Shown here piece after piece: positions 1,738 through 19,396 of a stretch of 64,000 nucleotides of DNA. A program made the translations under genes and the position numbers. The stretch lies in the NCBI RefSeq assembly GCF_055900595.2, contig NZ_CM148325.1. One strand, given 5' to 3'. Position 1 is the first letter of the stretch; every line of letters begins with the position of its first letter. The notes beneath the pieces were generated by a model. The model was not told the origin of the DNA, did no database searches, and saw nothing but the letters and a program-made list of their open reading frames with translations.

Positions 1738-3174
1738 ATGGCGCAGTCGAAACTCTATCCAGTTGTGATGGCAGGTGGCTCCGGTAGCCGCTTATGGCCG
1801 CTTTCCCGCGTACTTTACCCCAAGCAGTTTTTATGCCTGAAAGGCGATCTCACCATGCTGCAAACCACCATCTGCCGCCTGAACGGTGTGGAGTGCGAAA
1901 GCCCGGTGGTGATTTGCAATGAGCAGCACCGCTTTATTGTCGCGGAACAGCTGCGTCAACTGAACAAACTCACCAAGAACATTATTCTCGAACCGGCAGG
2001 GCGTAACACTGCACCTGCCATTGCGCTGGCGGCGCTGGCGGCAAAACGTCATAGCCCGGAGAGCGACCCGTTAATGCTGGTCTTGGCGGCGGATCATGTG
2101 ATTGCCGATGAAGACGCGTTCCGTGCCGCCGTGCGTAATGCCATGCCGTATGCCAAAGCGGGCAAGCTGGTGACCTTCGGCATTGTGCCGGATCTACCTG
2201 AAACCGGTTATGGCTATATTCGTCGCGGTGAAGTGTCGGAGGGTGAGCAGGATACGGTGGCCTTTGAAGTGGCGCAGTTTGTCGAAAAACCGAATCTGGA
2301 AACCGCTCAGGCCTATGTGGCAAGCGGCGAATATTACTGGAACAGCGGTATGTTCCTGTTCCGCGCCGGACGCTATCTCGAAGAACTGAAAAAATATCGC
2401 CCGGATATTCTCGATGCCTGTGAAAAAGCGATGAGCGCCGTCGATCCGGATCTCGATTTTATTCGTGTGGATGAAGAAGCGTTTCTCGCCTGCCCGGAAG
2501 AGTCGGTGGATTACGCGGTCATGGAACGTACGGCAGATGCCGTTGTGGTGCCGATGGATGCGGGCTGGAGTGATGTCGGTTCTTGGTCTTCATTATGGGA
2601 GATCAGCGCCCACACCGCCGAGGGCAACGTTTGCCACGGCGATGTGATTAATCACAAAACTGAAAACAGCTATGTGTACGCCGAATCTGGCCTGGTCACC
2701 ACCGTCGGGGTGAAAGATTTGGTGGTAGTGCAGACCAAAGATGCAGTGCTGATTGCCGACCGTAACGCGGTGCAGGATGTGAAAAAAGTGGTCGAGCAGA
2801 TCAAAGCCGATGGTCGCCATGAGCATCGGGTACATCGCGAAGTGTATCGTCCGTGGGGCAAATATGACTCTATCGACGCGGGCGACCGCTACCAGGTGAA
2901 ACGCATCACCGTGAAACCGGGCGAGGGCTTGTCGGTACAGATGCACCATCACCGCGCGGAACACTGGGTAGTGGTCGCGGGAACGGCAAAAGTCACTATT
3001 GACGGTGATATCAAACTGCTTGGTGAAAACGAGTCCATTTATATTCCGCTGGGGGCGACGCACTGCCTGGAAAACCCGGGGAAAATTCCGCTCGATTTAA
3101 TTGAAGTGCGGTCCGGCTCTTATCTCGAAGAGGATGATGTGGTGCGCTTCGCGGATCGCTACGGACGGGTGTAA
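1738..3174 (+). CDS. cpsB: Mannose-1-phosphate guanylyltransferase
   Basis: 478-aa ORF with an N-terminal nucleotidyltransferase glycine-rich motif ([15 protein letters not shown]) and a C-terminal cupin-like region; conserved wca gene order. Confidence 0.92.
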
Positions 3175-3177
3175 ACG

Positions 3178-3290
<113 letters not shown>

Positions 3291-3366: not shown

Positions 3367-4737
3367 ATGAAAAAATTAACCTGCTTTAAAGCCTATGATA
3401 TTCGTGGAAAATTAGGCGAAGAACTGAATGAAGATATTGCCTGGCGCATTGGTCGCGCTTATGGCGAATTTCTCAAACCGAAAACCATTGTGTTAGGCGG
3501 TGATGTCCGCCTCACCAGCGAAACCTTAAAACTGGCGCTGGCGAAAGGTTTACAGGATGCGGGCGTCGATGTGCTGGATATTGGCATGTCCGGCACCGAA
3601 GAGATCTATTTCGCCACGTTCCATCTCGGTGTGGATGGCGGCATTGAAGTTACCGCCAGCCATAATCCGATGGATTATAACGGCATGAAGCTGGTGCGCG
3701 AAGGGGCTCGCCCGATCAGCGGTGATACCGGACTGCGCGATGTCCAGCGTCTGGCAGAAGCCAACGACTTTCCTCCCGTTGATGAAACCAAACGCGGTCG
3801 CTATCAGCAAATCAATCTGCGTGACGCTTACGTTGATCACCTGTTCGGTTATATCAACGTCAAAAACCTCACGCCGCTCAAGCTGGTGATCAACTCCGGG
3901 AACGGCGCAGCGGGTCCGGTGGTGGACGCTATCGAAGCCCGCTTTAACGCCCTCGGCGCTCCGGTGGAATTAATCAAAGTGCACAACACGCCGGACGGCA
4001 ATTTCCCCAACGGTATTCCTAACCCGCTGCTGCCGGAATGCCGCGACGACACCCGCAATGCGGTCATCAAACACGGCGCGGATATGGGCATTGCCTTTGA
4101 TGGCGATTTTGACCGCTGCTTCCTGTTTGACGAAAAAGGGCAGTTTATCGAAGGCTACTACATTGTCGGCCTGCTGGCAGAAGCGTTCCTCGAAAAAAAT
4201 CCCGGCGCGAAGATCATCCACGATCCACGTCTCTCCTGGAACACCGTTGATGTGGTGACTGCCGCTGGCGGCACGCCGGTGATGTCGAAAACCGGACACG
4301 CCTTTATTAAAGAACGTATGCGCAAGGAAGACGCCATCTACGGTGGCGAAATGAGCGCCCACCATTACTTCCGTGATTTCGCTTACTGCGACAGCGGCAT
4401 GATCCCGTGGCTGCTGGTCGCCGAACTGGTGTGCCTGAAAGATAAAACGCTGGGCGAACTGGTACGCGACCGGATGGCGGCGTTTCCGGCAAGCGGTGAG
4501 ATCAACAGCAAACTGGCGCAACCCGTTGAGGCGATTAACCGCGTGGAACAGCATTTTAGCCGTGAGGCGCTGGCGGTGGATCGCACCGATGGCATCAGCA
4601 TGACCTTTGCCGACTGGCGCTTTAACCTGCGCTCCTCCAACACCGAACCGGTGGTGCGGTTGAATGTGGAATCGCGCGGTGATGTGCCGCTGATGGAAGC
4701 GCGAACGCGAACTCTGCTGGCGTTGCTGAACGAGTAA
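3367..4737 (+). CDS. cpsG: Phosphomannomutase
   Basis: ORF 3319..4737; start chosen at the internal [14 protein letters not shown]; phosphohexomutase active-site context (TASHNP). Confidence 0.92.
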
Positions 4738-4791
4738 TGTCGGATCTTCCCTTACCCCATTGCGGGTAAGGGGCTAATAACAGGAACAACG

Positions 4792-6186
4792 ATGACAAAT
4801 CTAAAAAAGCGCGAGCGAGCGAAAACCAATGCATCGTTAATCTCTATGGTGCAACGCTTTTCAGATATCACCATCATGTTTGCCGGACTATGGCTGGTTT
4901 GCGAAGTGAGCGGACTGTCATTCCTCTACATGCACCTGTTGGTGGCGCTGATTACGCTGGTGGTGTTCCAGATGCTGGGCGGCATCACCGATTTTTATCG
5001 CTCATGGCGCGGTGTTCGGGCAGCGACAGAATTTGCCCTGTTGCTACAAAACTGGACCTTAAGCGTGATTTTCAGCGCCGGACTGGTGGCGTTCAACAAT
5101 GATTTCGACACGCAACTGAAAATCTGGCTGGCGTGGTATGGGCTGACCAGCATCGGACTGGTGGTTTGCCGTTCATGTATTCGCATTGGGGCGGGCTGGC
5201 TGCGTAATCATGGCTATAACAAGCGCATGGTCGCGGTGGCGGGGGATTTAGCCGCCGGACAAATGCTGATGGAGAGCTTCCGTAATCAGCCGTGGTTAGG
5301 GTTTGAAGTGGTGGGTATATACCACGACCCGAAACCGGGCGGCGTTTCTAACGACTGGGCGGGCAATCTGCAACAGCTGGTCGAGGATGCGAAAGCGGGC
5401 AAGATTCATAACGTCTATATCGCGATGCAAATGTGCGACGGCGCGCGAGTGAAAAAACTGGTCCATCAACTGGCGGACACCACCTGTTCGGTGCTGCTGA
5501 TCCCCGATGTCTTTACCTTCAACATTCTCCATTCACGTCTCGAAGAGATGAACGGCGTTCCGGTGGTGCCGCTTTACGACACGCCGCTTTCCGGGGTTAA
5601 CCGCCTGCTCAAACGTGCGGAAGACATTGTGCTGGCGACGCTTATCCTGCTGCTGATCTCTCCGGTGCTGTGCTGTATTGCGCTGGCGGTGAAACTCAGT
5701 TCACCAGGACCGGTTATTTTCCGCCAGACTCGCTATGGCATGGATGGTAAACCGATCAAAGTGTGGAAGTTTCGTTCCATGAAAGTGATGGAGAACGACA
5801 AAGTCGTGACTCAGGCGACGCAGAACGATCCGCGCGTCACCAAAGTGGGGAACTTTCTGCGCCGCACCTCGCTGGATGAATTGCCGCAGTTTATCAATGT
5901 GCTGACCGGCGGGATGTCGATTGTCGGGCCACGTCCACACGCGGTGGCGCATAACGAACAGTATCGACAGCTCATTGAAGGCTACATGCTGCGCCATAAG
6001 GTGAAACCGGGCATTACCGGCTGGGCGCAGATTAACGGCTGGCGCGGCGAAACCGACACACTGGAGAAAATGGAAAAACGCGTCGAGTTCGACCTTGAGT
6101 ACATCCGCGAATGGAGCGTCTGGTTCGATATCAAAATCGTTTTCCTGACGGTGTTCAAAGGTTTCGTTAACAAAGCGGCATATTGA
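4792..6186 (+). CDS. wcaJ: Undecaprenyl-phosphate glucose phosphotransferase (colanic acid initiating transferase)
   Basis: 464-aa ORF with N-terminal TM segments and a C-terminal sugar-transferase domain (PRPHAV...GWAQING). Confidence 0.92.
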   Translation: MTNLKKRERAKTNASLISMVQRFSDITIMFAGLWLVCEVSGLSFLYMHLLVALITLVVFQMLGGITDFYRSWRGVRAATEFALLLQNWTLSVIFSAGLVAFNNDFDTQLKIWLAWYGLTSIGLVVCRSCIRIGAGWLRNHGYNKRMVAVAGDLAAGQMLMESFRNQPWLGFEVVGIYHDPKPGGVSNDWAGNLQQLVEDAKAGKIHNVYIAMQMCDGARVKKLVHQLADTTCSVLLIPDVFTFNILHSRLEEMNGVPVVPLYDTPLSGVNRLLKRAEDIVLATLILLLISPVLCCIALAVKLSSPGPVIFRQTRYGMDGKPIKVWKFRSMKVMENDKVVTQATQNDPRVTKVGNFLRRTSLDELPQFINVLTGGMSIVGPRPHAVAHNEQYRQLIEGYMLRHKVKPGITGWAQINGWRGETDTLEKMEKRVEFDLEYIREWSVWFDIKIVFLTVFKGFVNKAAY

Positions 6187-7689: not shown

Positions 7690-8172
7690 CGGTTGCCGGG
7701 TGCAGCGTAAAACGCCTTATCCATCCTACGGTTCTGTGCTCGGGACCTGTAGGCCTGATAAGACGCGTCAGCGTCGCATCAGGCACTGAATGCCGGATGC
7801 GGTGTGAACGCCTTATCCGGCCTACGGTTCAGGGCTTGGATCTTGTAGGCCCGATAAGACGCGCCAGCGTCGCATCAGGCACTGAATGCCGGATGCGGCG
7901 TAAAACGCCTTATCCGGCCTACGGTTCTGTGCTCGGGTCTTGTAGGCCTGATAAGACGCGCCAGCGTCGCATCAGGCACTGAATGCCGGATGCGGCGTGA
8001 ACGCCTTATCCATCCTACGGTTCTGTGCTCGGGACCTGTAGGCCTGATAAGACGCGTCAGCGTCGCATCAGGCACTGAATGCCGGATGCGGCGTGAACGC
8101 CTTATCCGGCCTACGGTTCTGTGCTTGGATCTTGTAGGCCTGATAAGAGGCGTCAGCGTCGCATCAGGCAAA
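7690..8172. repeat. Tandem REP/BIME array, about 5 copies of a unit of roughly 98 bp
   Basis: Repeated gccggatgcggcgtgaacgccttatccggcctacggttctgtgctcggg...tgtaggcctgataagacgcg.cagcgtcgcatcaggcactgaat units seen directly; six-frame ORFs here are repeat artefacts. Confidence 0.8.
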
Positions 8173-12307: not shown

Positions 12308-13201
12308 ATGACGAATTTAAAAGCAGTTATTCCTGTAGCGGGTCTTGGGATGCATATGTTGCCTGCCACTAAGGCGATTCCCAAAGAGATGCTACCGATC
12401 GTCGACAAGCCAATGATTCAGTACATTGTTGACGAGATTGTGGCTGCAGGGATCAAAGAAATCCTCCTGGTAACTCACGCGTCCAAGAACGCGGTCGAAA
12501 ACCACTTCGACACCTCTTATGAATTAGAATCTCTTCTTGAGCAGCGCGTGAAGCGTCAACTGCTTGCGGAAGTGCAGTCCATCTGTCCACCGGGCGTGAC
12601 CATTATGAACGTGCGTCAGGGCGAACCTTTAGGTTTAGGCCACTCCATTTTATGTGCACGACCCGCCATTGGTGACAATCCATTTGTCGTGGTGCTGCCA
12701 GACGTTGTGATCGACGACGCCAGCGCCGACCCGCTGCGCTACAACCTTGCTGCCATGATTGCACGATTCAACGAAACGGGTCGTAGCCAGGTGCTGGCAA
12801 AACGTATGCCGGGTGACCTCTCTGAATACTCGGTCATCCAGACCAAAGAACCACTGGACCGTGAAGGTAAAGTCAGCCGCATTGTTGAATTTATCGAAAA
12901 ACCGGATCAGCCGCAGACGTTGGACTCAGACATCATGGCCGTTGGTCGCTATGTGCTTTCTGCCGATATTTGGCCGGAACTTGAATGCACGCAGCCAGGT
13001 GCATGGGGGCGTATTCAGCTGACTGATGCCATCGCTGAACTGGCGAAAAAACAGTCCGTTGATGCCATGCTGATGACAGGTGACAGCTACGACTGCGGTA
13101 AAAAAATGGGTTATATGCAGGCATTTGTGAAGTATGGACTACGCAACCTGAAAGAAGGGGCGAAGTTCCGTAAAGGGATTGAGAAGCTGTTAAGCGAATA
13201 A
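12308..13201 (+). CDS. galF: UTP-glucose-1-phosphate uridylyltransferase regulatory paralogue GalF
   Basis: ORF 12296..13201; start taken at [14 protein letters not shown]; conserved left flank of O-antigen loci. Confidence 0.92.
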
Positions 13202-13485
13202 TGAAATCTGACCGGATGTAACGGTTGATAAGAAAATTATAACGGCAGTGAAGATTCGTGGCGAAAGTAATTTGTTGCGAATATTCCTGCCGTTGTTTTA
13301 TATAAACAATCAGAATAACAACGAGTTAGCAATAGGATTTTAGTCAAAGTTTTCCAGGATTTTCCTTGTTTCCAGAGCGGATTGGTAAGACAATTAGCGT
13401 TTGAATTTTTCGAGCTAAGCGCGAGTGGGTAACGCTCGTCACATCGTAGACATGCATGCAGTGCACTGGTAGCTGTAAAGCCTGG

Positions 13486-13497
13486 GGCGGTAGCGTG
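13486..13497 (+). promoter_or_regulatory. ops element (GGCGGTAGCGTG) within a JUMPstart-like region upstream of the O-antigen operon
   Basis: Exact ggcggtagcgtg seen in the galF-distal intergenic region; the known RfaH recruitment site of polysaccharide operons. Confidence 0.65.
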
Positions 13498-13649
13498 TCT
13501 AGGGGCAGGGAAAGATTATCAGAAGTACACTTTTTGTACTAAATAATTCGCATTTTATGTTCAAAAATTGAGATATCCCTCATTACCTAAAACTGTTTTT
13601 CACAGCTTATATATGATCAAATACTCCTTGCTTAAATAAGGAGAACAAA

Positions 13650-14786
13650 ATGGAACTTAAAAAATTGATGGAACATATTTCTGTTATTCCCGATTACAGA
13701 CAAGCCTGGAAAGTGGAATATAATTTGTCGGATATTCTACTGTTGACTATTTGTGCCGTCATTTCTGGTGCAGAAGGCTGGGAAGATATAGAGGATTTTG
13801 GGGAAACACATCTCGATTTTTTGAAGCAATATGGTGATTTTGAAAATGGTATTCCTGTTCACGATACCATTGCCAGAGTTGTATCCTGTATCAGTCCTGC
13901 AAAATTTCACGAGTGCTTTATTAACTGGATGCGTGACTGCCATTCTTCAGATGATAAAGACGTCATTGCAATTGATGGAAAAACGCTCCGGCACTCTTAT
14001 GACAAGAGTCGCCGCAGGGGAGCGATTCATGTCATTAGTGCGTTCTCAACAATGCACAGTCTGGTCATCGGACAGATCAGGACGGATGAGAAATCCAATG
14101 AGATTACAGCTATCCCTGAACTTATTAACATGCTGGATATTAAAGGAAAAATCATCACAACTGATGCGATGGGTTGCCAGAAAGATATTGCAGAGAAGAT
14201 ACAAAAACAGGGAGGTGATTATTTATTCGCTGTAAAAGGAAACCAGGGGCGGCTAAATAAAGCCTTTGAGGAAAAATTTCCGCTGAAAGAATTAAATAAT
14301 CCAGAGCATGACAGTTACGCAATGAGTGAAAAGAGTCACGGCAGAGAAGAAATCCGTCTTCATATTGTTTGCGATGTCCCTGATGAACTTATTGATTTCA
14401 CGTTTGAATGGAAAGGACTGAAAAAATTATGTGTGGCAGCCTCCTTTCGGTCAATAATAGCAGAACAAAAGAAAGAGCCAGAAATGACGGTCAGATATTA
14501 TATCAGTTCTGCTGATTTAACCGCAGAGAAGTTCGCCACAGCAATCCGAAACCACTGGCACGTGGAGAATAAGCTGCACTGGCGTCTGGACGTGGTAATG
14601 AATGAAGACGACTGCAAAATAAGAAGAGGAAATGCAGCAGAATTATTTTCAGGGATACGGCACATCGCTATTAATATTTTGACGAATGATAAGGTATTCA
14701 AGGCAGGGTTAAGACGTAAGATGCGAAAAGCAGCCATGGACAGAAACTATCTGGCGTCAGTCCTTGCGGGGAGCGGGCTTTCGTAA
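13650..14786 (+). CDS. ISAs1-family transposase (Rhs H-repeat-associated protein)
   Basis: 378-aa ORF with the H-repeat/ISAs1 transposase signature as I recall it (…[10 protein letters not shown]…, …AVKGNQGRL…, …[15 protein letters not shown]…); GC lower than flanking core. Confidence 0.85.
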
Positions 14787-14864
14787 TCTTGCCCTGAATA
14801 AACAACTTATTGATTCATGTGAATAAGTTACTCGAATGATATCTGTTGTATATGGGGCACTTCA

Positions 14865-16109
14865 TTGAGCAAAACTAAACTAAATGTTCTTTACCTTGCA
14901 ATAAGTCAGGGTGCCAATTACCTACTGCCATTATTAATTTTTCCTTATCTTGTTAGAGTCATTGGTGTATCGAATTTTGGTGATCTGAGTTTTTCATTGA
15001 TAACTATACAAGTGTTGTTAATGGTTGTTGAATATGGTTTTGGATATAGTGGGACAAGAGAAATAGCACTAAATAACGATAAAAAATACCATTCTGAATT
15101 TTTTTGCGGTGTGGTGCTTGCTCGTTTTATATTAATGCTAATTGCAGCTATTATACTCATAATACTCTGTTTTTTTTATGTTTTTAACGACGTTAAGTAT
15201 TTGTTATGTGTTGGTTTTCTGTCCGTAATTGCAGGTGTTTTCAATCCAAATTGGTTTTTGCAAGGTAAGGAAATGATGAGTGTGATGGCTGTGCTGTCAC
15301 TATTTTCACGAGGCATAGCAGTCGTTGCAGTTTATCTAATTATAAAACCCGCAACGCCGATGTACATCAGTGCCTTATTATTGAGCATGCCATATATTTT
15401 GTATTCATTCTGTGGCGTTGCCTACTTACTTATTATCAAGGAGATTTTTTTATGTAGGCCACCGATAAAGAAAATTCAAGTAATTTTAAAAAATGGATTT
15501 CATTTTTTTTGTTCAACACTTGCGACTAGTGCATACACAATGTTGACCCCTCTTGTATTGGGTGGCGTATCTGGAAAGTTTGATGTAGGCATCTTTAACT
15601 CAGCTAACATGATCAAACAAGGTTTGGCTGGACTTGCATCACCATTAGTCCAAGCTTTTTATCCAAGAATTAACATTTTGCAAAGAGAGAATCCATATAT
15701 TGCAAACTTAAAATCTAGAATGATTCTTAAATACTTGCTTGTTTTTTACATGGCTTTAGCAATGCCATTTTTACTTTTTGCCAACCAATTATCATTATTA
15801 ATATTCGGCATGAAAGGTGAAGTAATTGCAGGTGCAATGCAATTAATGACATTGCTTCCTATATTCATAGGTTTTAATACAGTTGTCGGGTTACTTGTAT
15901 TAGTACCTAATGGGATGCAAAAACAGTATTTCAAATCTATTTTCCTAGGAACTATTACTTGTTTAAGCATAGTTTATCCAGCATGTAAATATTATGGAGC
16001 AACGGGTGCGATTGTGAGTCTTATTGTAGCTGAAATTTTCGTTGGCATGGGAATGCTTAAACAATTCATTAAAGTAAATAAAACTGTATGTAGGCCTCAT
16101 AAATTATGA
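14865..16109 (+). CDS. wzx: O-antigen flippase Wzx
   Basis: 414-aa, about 12-TM protein with a typical Wzx N-terminus; first gene of a low-GC cluster. Confidence 0.8.
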   Translation: MSKTKLNVLYLAISQGANYLLPLLIFPYLVRVIGVSNFGDLSFSLITIQVLLMVVEYGFGYSGTREIALNNDKKYHSEFFCGVVLARFILMLIAAIILIILCFFYVFNDVKYLLCVGFLSVIAGVFNPNWFLQGKEMMSVMAVLSLFSRGIAVVAVYLIIKPATPMYISALLLSMPYILYSFCGVAYLLIIKEIFLCRPPIKKIQVILKNGFHFFCSTLATSAYTMLTPLVLGGVSGKFDVGIFNSANMIKQGLAGLASPLVQAFYPRINILQRENPYIANLKSRMILKYLLVFYMALAMPFLLFANQLSLLIFGMKGEVIAGAMQLMTLLPIFIGFNTVVGLLVLVPNGMQKQYFKSIFLGTITCLSIVYPACKYYGATGAIVSLIVAEIFVGMGMLKQFIKVNKTVCRPHKL

Positions 16110-18361: not shown

Positions 18362-19396
18362 ATGTTTTCATCTAAAACACTGTTAATTACTGGTGGTACT
18401 GGCTCTTTCGGGAATGCTGTATTAAATAGATTTCTTGATACAGATATTGCAGAAATCCGTATATTTAGTCGTGATGAAAAAAAACAAGATGATATGCGGA
18501 AAAAATACAATAATCAAAAATTAAAGTTCTATATTGGTGATGTCAGAGATTACCGTAGTATTTTGAATGCGACTCGCGGTGTTGATTTTATATATCATGC
18601 AGCGGCACTTAAGCAAGTTCCATCATGTGAATTTCATCCTATGGAAGCCGTTAAAACTAATATCCTTGGTACGGAAAATGTTCTTGAAGCAGCTATAGCG
18701 AATGAAGTGAAGAGGGTTGTATGCCTAAGTACTGATAAAGCTGTATACCCGATTAACGCAATGGGTATTTCAAAAGCTATGATGGAAAAGGTCATGGTCG
18801 CGAAATCCCGTAATGTTGATCGCAATAAAACAGTAATATGTGGTACCCGTTATGGGAATGTTATGGCATCTCGCGGTTCAGTTATTCCATTATTTGTTGA
18901 TCTTATTAGAGCGGGCAAGCCACTCACAATAACTGATCCTAATATGACCCGCTTTATGATGACTCTTGAGGATGCGGTAGATTTAGTTCTTTATGCGTTT
19001 GAACATGGTAATAATGGTGATATCTTTGTGCAAAAAGCACCTGCAGCAACTATTGACACATTAGCTATTGCTTTAAAGGAATTACTAAATGTTCCAGACC
19101 ATCCGGTAAATGTCATTGGAACGCGTCATGGCGAGAAATTATATGAAGCTCTACTTAGTCGTGAGGAAATGATCGCTGCTATAGATATGGGTGATTATTA
19201 CCGTGTCCCGCCAGATCTTCGTGACCTTAATTATGGCAAATATGTTGAGCAAGGTGATAGCCGAATATCTGAAATAGAAGATTATAACTCTCATAATACT
19301 CAACGGTTAGATGTTGAAGGCATGAAAGAGCTCTTGCTAAAATTAGCCTTTATTCGAGCAATTCGTGCTGGTGAAAAATATAATCTGGATTCATGA
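18362..19396 (+). CDS. fnlA: UDP-GlcNAc 4,6-dehydratase/5-epimerase (FnlA/CapE/WbjB-like)
   Basis: 344-aa SDR-type ORF (LITGGTGSFG, extended SDR); first of a three-gene L-FucNAc-type pathway. Confidence 0.85.
   Translation: MFSSKTLLITGGTGSFGNAVLNRFLDTDIAEIRIFSRDEKKQDDMRKKYNNQKLKFYIGDVRDYRSILNATRGVDFIYHAAALKQVPSCEFHPMEAVKTNILGTENVLEAAIANEVKRVVCLSTDKAVYPINAMGISKAMMEKVMVAKSRNVDRNKTVICGTRYGNVMASRGSVIPLFVDLIRAGKPLTITDPNMTRFMMTLEDAVDLVLYAFEHGNNGDIFVQKAPAATIDTLAIALKELLNVPDHPVNVIGTRHGEKLYEALLSREEMIAAIDMGDYYRVPPDLRDLNYGKYVEQGDSRISEIEDYNSHNTQRLDVEGMKELLLKLAFIRAIRAGEKYNLDS

Follow-up and report, generated by a model that had tools for sequence, protein, structure and literature searches.

How did a mobile element come to lie between the ops element and the first specific gene of an O-antigen operon, where does it begin and end, and how are the genes behind it transcribed? 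These questions are raised by a stretch of 64,000 nucleotides (in the following: the window), which on sequence grounds is the O-antigen locus of Escherichia coli O15, a type found in important extraintestinal and Shiga-toxin-producing lineages. The window shares 99.99% identity over 28.9 kb with strain M160133, in whose annotation both wzx and wzy belong to the O15 family; wzx and wzy of this type, flanked by galF and gnd, are the defining arrangement of an O15 O-antigen cluster, and the window has it. On the near-identical RefSeq record wzx is labelled 'O15 family O-antigen flippase'. The features from galF to wzx are as follows.

12308..13201, plus strand: galF, conserved gene bounding the O-antigen locus on the left (ORF; RefSeq annotation of the near-identical M160133 record)
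13202..13458, plus strand: ordinary galF-JUMPstart intergenic region, expected site of the operon promoter (position predicted)
13459..13497, plus strand: JUMPstart element, 39 nt (Rfam RF01707: 49.6 bits, E 8e-10; gathering score 35)
13486..13497, plus strand: ops 12-mer GGCGGTAGCGTG, exact, last 12 nt of JUMPstart
13498..13505, plus strand: 8-bp linker TCTAGGGG from ops to the IS, no variation in six aligned O15 loci
13506..14796, plus strand: full-length ISEc1 of 1291 bp, an H-repeat of the ISAs1 family, reading in the direction of the operon
13506..13518, plus strand: left terminal inverted repeat CAGGGAAAGATTA (repeat search, 92% complementary to 14784-14796)
13624..13644, plus strand: predicted 7-bp hairpin, its 3' arm formed by the Shine-Dalgarno sequence AAGGAG of the transposase gene (minimum-free-energy fold)
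13650..14786, plus strand: intact transposase gene, 378 aa, DDE (ORF; NCBIfam, Pfam, YhhI)
14784..14796, plus strand: right terminal inverted repeat TAATCTTGCCCTG
14797..14864, plus strand: 68-bp O15-specific spacer from the IS to wzx, no variation in six aligned O15 loci
14865..16109, plus strand: wzx, coding for the O15 flippase, with which the low-GC block specific to O15 opens (ORF; RefSeq)

An intact 378-aa H-repeat transposase gene, past ops, ahead of wzx and reading with the operon, was originally predicted, and the matches of its product bear this out. The transposase matches the NCBIfam profile NF033564 'ISAs1 family transposase' over profile positions 1-314 of 314 with 415.9 bits (cut-off 70), contains the Pfam domains DDE_Tnp_1_assoc (PF13808) and DDE_Tnp_1 (PF01609), and is identical to YhhI of K-12 in 368 of 378 residues (97%) without gaps. 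At the nucleotide level the element shares 96.7% identity with the yhhI H-repeat of K-12 over 1291 bp, likewise without gaps, 96.7-97.5% over 1291 bp with yhhI and other copies taken together, and 96-97.5% with multi-copy H-repeats elsewhere in E. coli. Several copies at the identical position are named 'ISAs1-like element ISEc1 family transposase' in RefSeq.

Alignment to family members, which had been suggested for defining the element, places its ends at 13506 and 14796, 8 bp past ops and 68 bp before wzx. These are also the ends of three independent copies whose flanks are unrelated, and they agree with the duplication-delimited ends of a nested ISAs1 copy described below. The BLAST match to yhhI of K-12 ran on past these ends, for 12 bp at the left and 4 bp at the right, an extension that was rejected as chance because the three independent copies have unrelated flanks. 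The terminal inverted repeats are 13 bp long and complementary at 12 of 13 positions; together with the identity to multi-copy H-repeats they speak for mobility and against a non-mobile gene lacking terminal repeats. Positions 13506-14796 are a full-length copy of ISEc1, apparently still functional as far as its sequence can tell. The span first proposed, 13201-14865, contains the element, but only 13506-14796 is mobile DNA. The expected non-coding leader of roughly 450 bp before the transposase gene is likewise present (448 bp) but composite, consisting of 304 bp of the usual intergenic DNA between galF and JUMPstart with the 8 bp of the linker, followed by 144 bp that belong to the IS as its untranslated 5' part.

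No target-site duplication was found around ISEc1, the left flank GTGTCTAGGGG and the right flank AATAAACAAC having nothing in common. This bears on the route to the present flanks and not on the status of the element as an IS; the H-repeats of K-12 likewise lack a target-site duplication. The O15 copy shares with the ISEc1/H-rpt of RhsB in K-12 (yhhI) the same 1291 bp, the termini, the single 378-aa DDE transposase and the lack of a flanking duplication. It differs from the K-12 copy by a few diagnostic substitutions, e.g. T at IS position 12, and by its location, the K-12 copy sitting at an Rhs element and the O15 copy in the leader of the O-antigen operon, 8 bp past ops. In its 5' region the predicted hairpin over the Shine-Dalgarno sequence may damp translation of the transposase, with a z-score for the fold of the IS 5' end of only -0.37, no better than shuffles. 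On the minus strand, 13624-13644 reads as a weak terminator-like site.

Upstream of the element, the galF-JUMPstart intergenic DNA finds a match of about 96% in nearly all E. coli genomes (BLAST, query positions 1-297). The ops element lies exactly where it was predicted, at 13486-13497, inside the RF01707 match at 13459-13497. RfaH is loaded at ops, and in comparison with known systems of JUMPstart/ops and RfaH polarity suppression the O15 locus shows the same canonical JUMPstart with the exact ops 12-mer, here directly upstream of ISEc1; the signal in itself is nothing unusual. A T at 13483 in the window breaks one stem pair of JUMPstart, and some O15 loci have A instead of G as the first base of ops.

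Among 5426 complete E. coli genomes surveyed, 98 carry O15 wzx. The right junction of the IS was found in 98/98 genomes having the O15 spacer and wzx (weakest listed match 99.7%, full query) and the left junction, comprising ops, the 8 bp and the IS, in 99 genomes. The sole metagenome contig with the O15 spacer has the same arrangement with the IS present, and a collection of one genome per species gave no hit. The suggestion that the element might be absent from closely related loci is answered by its presence in all 98 O15 loci; an IS-free O15 locus was found neither among these genomes nor in the metagenome contig. O15 genomes with the IS come from many hosts, countries and galF backgrounds and include strains named O15:H12 and O15:H18, serotype names in the records that possibly derive from in-silico typing. 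In the E. coli O15 cluster ISEc1 is ancestral and fixed, and it travels with the cluster between lineages. It is also already known, as an ordinary IS that roughly a hundred public genomes of O15 carry in their annotation at this position; the original paper on the O15 cluster, by Beutin et al. in 2005 (GenBank AY647261), reportedly lists an H-repeat ORF. Literature searches on H-repeat or ISEc1 together with O15 returned nothing specific.

In at least 60 O15 genomes a second ISAs1 element is nested in the first at IS position 204, with a 10-bp target duplication ACAAGCCTGG, which indicates that the ISAs1 family is able to transpose. In these genomes, at least 60 in number, the second IS interrupts the outer transposase gene, which is left with a frameshift or a truncation. 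Between O15 loci the IS positions 205-940 differ by 0.5-5.4%, the linker and spacer by 0%, and wzx by 0-0.3%, with 1.2% in one locus; galF differs by 2.4-3.1% among loci of different chromosomal backgrounds, and the IS termini do not differ. The interior of the IS in the O15 loci is mosaic. The resident ISEc1 would keep swapping interior sequence with other genomic H-repeats through gene conversion; a recent donor was not identified, the best copies outside the O15 junction being only 98.4% identical.

Taken as a whole, we hold with good confidence that the O15 locus carries a fixed, full-length ISEc1 whose flanks probably do not stem from a simple insertion, whose interior undergoes gene conversion, and through which the operon is most likely read with the help of RfaH. 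What the sequences show directly is the identity of the element, its boundaries, orientation and fixation, the lack of a duplication and the mosaic interior, whereas read-through, the part of RfaH and the way the junction arose are inferred. Since a target-site duplication is lacking, the flanks probably arose by IS-associated recombination or adjacent deletion, and not by one clean insertion.

A reading compatible with this explanation goes further and regards the IS as the scar of the assembly or import of the O15 cluster, by which the galF-JUMPstart flank was joined to the low-GC genes, either through recombination between two H-repeats or through transposition with a cointegrate event; the IS would still lend itself to the exchange of O antigens as a portable patch of homology. 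A role of H-repeats in the rearrangement of O-antigen loci has been an idea since the 1990s. The missing target-site duplication suits this reading, whereas the sibling ISAs1 insertion made a clean 10-bp one, and so does the pattern of variation, with galF differing by 2.4-3.1%, linker, IS termini and spacer invariant and the IS interior patchy. The shared O15 block begins between 13465 and the IS. A crossover within an equivalent IS can be traced in two other clusters: the unrelated clusters L002 and L008/L009 have a common left junction of ops, GGGGAATTCT and the IS, share 92-100% identity per 50-bp window (one 76%) over the first ~850 bp of the IS, drop to 82-90% for most of the final 450 bp, and are unrelated past its end, a break in similarity that points to a crossover inside the IS. 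A precedent is the rfb cluster of Salmonella enterica group D2, in which an H-repeat remnant lies at the D1/E recombination junction (Xiang, Hobbs and Reeves 1994; reviewed in PMC3715488). There too an H-repeat within an O-antigen cluster lies at a boundary of segments of differing origin and was proposed as mediator of the join; the group D2 case is a mid-cluster remnant with both parental clusters known, whereas O15 has a complete element at the 5' edge. Against the reading, O-antigen clusters diverge right after ops even without an IS (L007/L010), so that the boundary needs no IS to explain it, and the K-12 H-repeats equally lack duplications, which makes the missing duplication weak evidence on the origin of the junction. 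Neither an IS-free O15 locus nor a donor locus was found, and the assembly event therefore cannot be reconstructed. We give this reading somewhat less than an even chance. That ISEc1 may mark the junction at which recombination introduced the low-GC cluster, as had been proposed, is plausible, with the missing duplication and the crossover within an IS elsewhere in its favour and the divergence after ops without an IS and the K-12 copies weighing against it.

As to expression, the transcript of the O15 genes most likely begins at the promoter upstream of JUMPstart and runs on across the element, presumably with the assistance of RfaH. Transcription would start at this usual promoter, and the polymerase would pick up RfaH at ops and read on through the 1.3-kb element (2.6 kb when nested) into wzx, the RfaH-modified RNA polymerase being expected to resist Rho-dependent polarity. 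A crude consensus scan of 13100-15000 gave no terminator-like site on the plus strand and two on the minus strand, a total within the shuffled expectation of 1.3 +/- 1.2. The lack of a terminator-like site on the sense strand, combined with the resistance conferred by RfaH, would explain why the insertion is tolerated. The nested second copy in at least 60 O15 genomes shows that still more IS DNA can be accommodated at this place.

Alternatively, the O15 genes could be transcribed from within the IS, by the transposase promoter or by an outward-facing promoter at the right end, so that the IS itself supplies expression. Outward promoters are commonly borne by IS of other families, and the two weak promoter-like sites found on the plus strand (13697-13724 and 14125-14152) lie within the transposase gene. 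However, the six promoter-like sites in total equal the chance level (5.4 +/- 2.7 in shuffled sequence), and the consensus scan found none at the left end of the element and none at or near the right one. The intact JUMPstart and ops are kept immediately upstream of the IS in all O15 loci, as expected if upstream transcription still matters, and in at least 60 O15 genomes the second IS interrupts the outer transposase gene together with its 5' region. We consider transcription from within the IS improbable.

Two last readings deserve hardly any credence: a recent transposition peculiar to this one isolate, with its leader as the target, to which the intact transposase ORF and the nested copy with its 10-bp duplication as a sign of a transposing family might point, is contradicted by the same junctions in 98/98 O15 genomes and by the lack of a target-site duplication around ISEc1; and a domesticated, non-mobile gene required for O15 synthesis, as its conserved position in all O15 loci might suggest, is contradicted by the insertion of a second IS, with a frameshift or truncation of the ORF, in at least 60 O15 genomes, by an ORF interior far more variable than wzx, by the 97% identity to multi-copy H-repeat transposases and by the retention of both inverted repeats.

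Insertions without disruption are known from other E. coli O-antigen clusters, namely IS629 in O18ab, ISEc11 in O164 and IS1 in O62, described by Iguchi et al. (2015, PMC4379981), who proposed that IS elements drive the diversification of the clusters. As in O15, these IS lie within the cluster and break no biosynthesis gene; they distinguish members of cluster groups, whereas the O15 ISEc1 is fixed in every O15 locus examined. ISAs1 elements follow ops in at least four O-antigen cluster types, and the ISAs1 copies or fragments in six kinds of O-antigen cluster are all co-oriented with the operon. It is conceivable, though on our estimate rather doubtful, that ISAs1 elements and H-repeats past ops are, instead of passive passengers, recurrent, orientation-selected 'handles' at the 5' edge of E. 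coli O-antigen clusters that provide 1.3 kb of portable homology by which strains swap entire clusters, and are tolerated only by virtue of RfaH read-through. The occurrence in at least four cluster types, the uniform orientation, the crossover in the IS between two unrelated clusters and the fixation in O15 are consistent with such a role, in which case the transposase would also be under the control of the O-antigen operon.

The element itself is of little importance and of some practical relevance. Between promoter/ops and wzx the IS contributes 1.3 to 2.6 kb of repeated DNA, which matters for the design of galF-wzx PCR, for the assembly of O15 loci from short reads and for engineered O15 expression. 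For the biology of the O-antigen operons, the O15 locus is a handy natural test case for the extent to which RfaH protects against the polarity of an IS.

The region around the transposase ORF is where an E. coli O-antigen locus begins on its 5' side; GC content is about 0.53 in galF and drops to 0.28-0.34 for genes past position 15000. The chromosome of the urinary isolate M160133 shares 99.99% identity with the window over 28.9 kb, with one gap and two mismatches, and is annotated in RefSeq in the order galF, 'ISAs1 family transposase', 'O15 family O-antigen flippase', a glycosyltransferase, 'O15 family O-antigen polymerase', fnlA and further genes to gnd. In the window fnlA (18362-19396) is intact and encodes 344 aa; in M160133 the gene is annotated as frameshifted (1034 bp). 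Between wzxC and wcaK of the colanic acid cluster lies a tandem repeat array (7694-8170; unit about 97 bp, copies 90-95% alike), and this intergenic gap measures 565 bp in the window versus 180-373 bp in other strains. The features at the galF-wzx junction are:

to 13201, plus strand: galF (end; ORF call)
13459-13497, plus strand: JUMPstart (Rfam RF01707, 49.6 bits, gathering score 35)
13486-13497, plus strand: ops 12-mer, 3' end of JUMPstart
13506-14796, plus strand: ISEc1 element, exactly 1291 bp (multi-copy part of the query in megablast against 5426 complete E. coli genomes)
13650-14786, plus strand: transposase ORF, 378 aa (ORF call)
from 14865, plus strand: wzx (start; ORF call)

The original prediction of an H-repeat-type (ISAs1) transposase on the operon strand is confirmed by a match to profile NF033564 (415.9 bits), the Pfam domains DDE_Tnp_1_assoc and DDE_Tnp_1, and ungapped identity at 368 of 378 residues with K-12 YhhI, the transposase of ISEc1, the H-repeat of RhsB. 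Three independent copies, by rhsB/yhhI, nfrB and ydcC/pptA, share both end points, with CAGGGAAAGAT on the left and ATCTTGCCCTG on the right, within unrelated flanks, which defines the element boundaries; the window copy is 96.7-97.5% identical to them over the full length. Terminal repeats are present as 13-bp inverted repeats, complementary at 12 of 13 positions. No target-site duplication is present at this primary copy (left flank GTGTCTAGGGG, right flank AATAAACAAC); all other sequence-based hallmarks of ISEc1/ISAs1 membership were present. The transposase is read in the direction of the operon, and 68 bp separate the right end from the wzx start codon.

The ops position had been read correctly, and the predicted leader of some 450 bp holds as a span; it is not a single leader but a composite of 304 bp of ordinary galF-JUMPstart DNA, the 8-bp linker (TCTAGGGG) by which ops is separated from the element, and 144 bp of untranslated IS sequence ahead of the transposase gene. 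The 304-bp part has a match of about 96% in nearly every E. coli genome (megablast). At JUMPstart position 13483 the window has T and five other O15 loci have A, so that one stem pair of the Rfam alignment is lost in the window, and the first G of ops is replaced by A (AGCGGTAGCGTG) in three O15 loci (L014, L016, L017). A 7-bp hairpin predicted at 13624-13644, statistically not distinctive, includes the Shine-Dalgarno sequence of the transposase and could limit its translation.

The IS is fixed in the O15 cluster and is not an insertion private to this isolate. A query joining the final 20 bp of the IS to the O15-specific spacer and the wzx start matched 98 genomes, every listed match spanning the query from base 1 and the weakest at 99.7%; a 64-bp query of ops, linker and IS left end located the left junction in 99 genomes. 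The strains bearing the junction come from humans, cattle, chickens, pigs, yak, dogs and water, and include NCTC86, ATCC 8739 and some named O15:H12 or O15:H18, names that may stem from in-silico typing. The one metagenome contig containing the spacer is arranged likewise, and the collection of species-representative genomes gave no match. The IS is present in 98 of 98 O15 loci, and no IS-free O15 locus was found among these genomes, the metagenome contig and the species-representative collection.

At least 36 O15 genomes carry the simple form with one copy, as in the window. At least 60 of the 98 have a nested form: a further ISAs1-family element sits within the first at its position 204, in the transposase N-terminus (between window positions 13709 and 13710), and 2.6 kb of IS DNA lie between ops and wzx:

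L003 (O15 locus) 1907-3197: nested ISAs1 (aligned loci)
L011 (O15 locus) 4011-5300: nested ISAs1 (aligned loci)

A perfect 10-bp duplication (ACAAGCCTGG) borders the nested copy, which shows that ISAs1-family elements do transpose in E. coli; according to the genome paper on E. coli W, transposition of these elements had not been observed (PMC3032704). As the nested copy splits the outer transposase, the latter is dispensable.

Six O15 loci from different backgrounds were aligned with the nested copy removed. Linker, both IS termini and spacer are invariant, and wzx differs at 0-3 of 1136 sites, except for one locus with 14. Within the IS, differences lie mainly at interior positions 205-940 (window 13710-14445), where the window departs in a patchy manner from L003, L011, L014, L015 and L016 at 4-40 of 736 sites (0.5-5.4%); in one O15 locus a separate group of 12 changes falls within positions 1-204. 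The pattern suggests repeated ectopic gene conversion, with H-repeats elsewhere in the genome as donors. A near-identical donor was not found; outside the O15 junction the best copy reaches 98.4% identity. Left of the IS, galF diverges by 2.4-3.1% from one background to another, and the rightmost differences specific to a background fall at 13451-13486, so the shared O15 block begins within JUMPstart or at the IS.

An ISAs1 element adjoins galF in 173 genomes, about 75 of them non-O15. In the O173-type cluster (SE11 and others) it lies about 340 bp after ops, beside an older IS fragment. Two unrelated non-O15 clusters, L002 and L008/L009, have an identical junction of ops, GGGGAATTCT and IS:

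L002 14287-15600: shared-junction ISAs1 (sequence comparison)
L008 7286-8586: shared-junction ISAs1 (sequence comparison)
L009 7287-8587: shared-junction ISAs1 (sequence comparison)

Compared in 50-bp windows from galF on, the two clusters share 92-100% identity (76% in one window) up to about position 850 of the IS; over the final 450 bp of the IS most windows lie at 82-90%, and past its right end the clusters are unrelated. This is direct sequence evidence for a crossover inside an IS at this position. In L002 (strain Z1323CEC0011) the right terminal repeat continues, at about 15595-15645, into a (CTCTG)n run roughly ten units long; other copies end in CCCTG. More ISAs1 copies or remnants occur inside these clusters and in an rfbBDAC-type cluster, and every copy or fragment in six kinds of O-antigen cluster (L002, L007-L010, L012-L013) is co-oriented with the operon.

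That the IS marks a recombination junction, as originally proposed, is plausible but not proven. In its favor are the missing duplication, more meaningful in a family that makes 10-bp duplications, the point at which the shared O15 block begins on its left, the crossover between L002 and L008/L009, and the H-repeat at the junction in Salmonella D2 (PMC3715488). Against this, K-12 H-repeats likewise lack duplications, and the proposed comparison across serogroups, while revealing the shared left junction, also found clusters with no IS there (L007/L010) that diverge immediately after ops. No donor or IS-free locus for comparison was found among those searched.

RfaH is loaded at ops, after which RNA polymerase resists pausing and Rho-dependent termination along long operons, including O-antigen operons. 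JUMPstart/ops is intact directly upstream of the IS and kept in all O15 loci. A consensus scan, a weak test for terminators, gave no terminator-like site on the sense strand and two such hairpins on the antisense strand only (14171-14153 and 13643-13624); likewise no convincing promoter was found at the IS right end. Together with the uniform co-orientation, the retained JUMPstart/ops and the lack of a sense terminator-like site fit the most likely reading, in which transcription of the O15 operon would start at its normal promoter and run straight through the IS into wzx.

The 2005 description of the O15 reference cluster AY647261 reportedly lists an H-repeat ORF. The cluster sequence, public since 2005, is cited in PMC4309606; insertion sequences within O-antigen clusters have been described and proposed to contribute to diversification (PMC4379981, PMC3715488), and the galF-wzx ISAs1 transposase is already annotated in about 100 RefSeq genomes. 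A short note might cover the fixation across all 98 loci, the nested insertion and its clean duplication, the mosaic attributed to gene conversion, the junction shared by two clusters together with the crossover inside its IS, and the uniform co-orientation.
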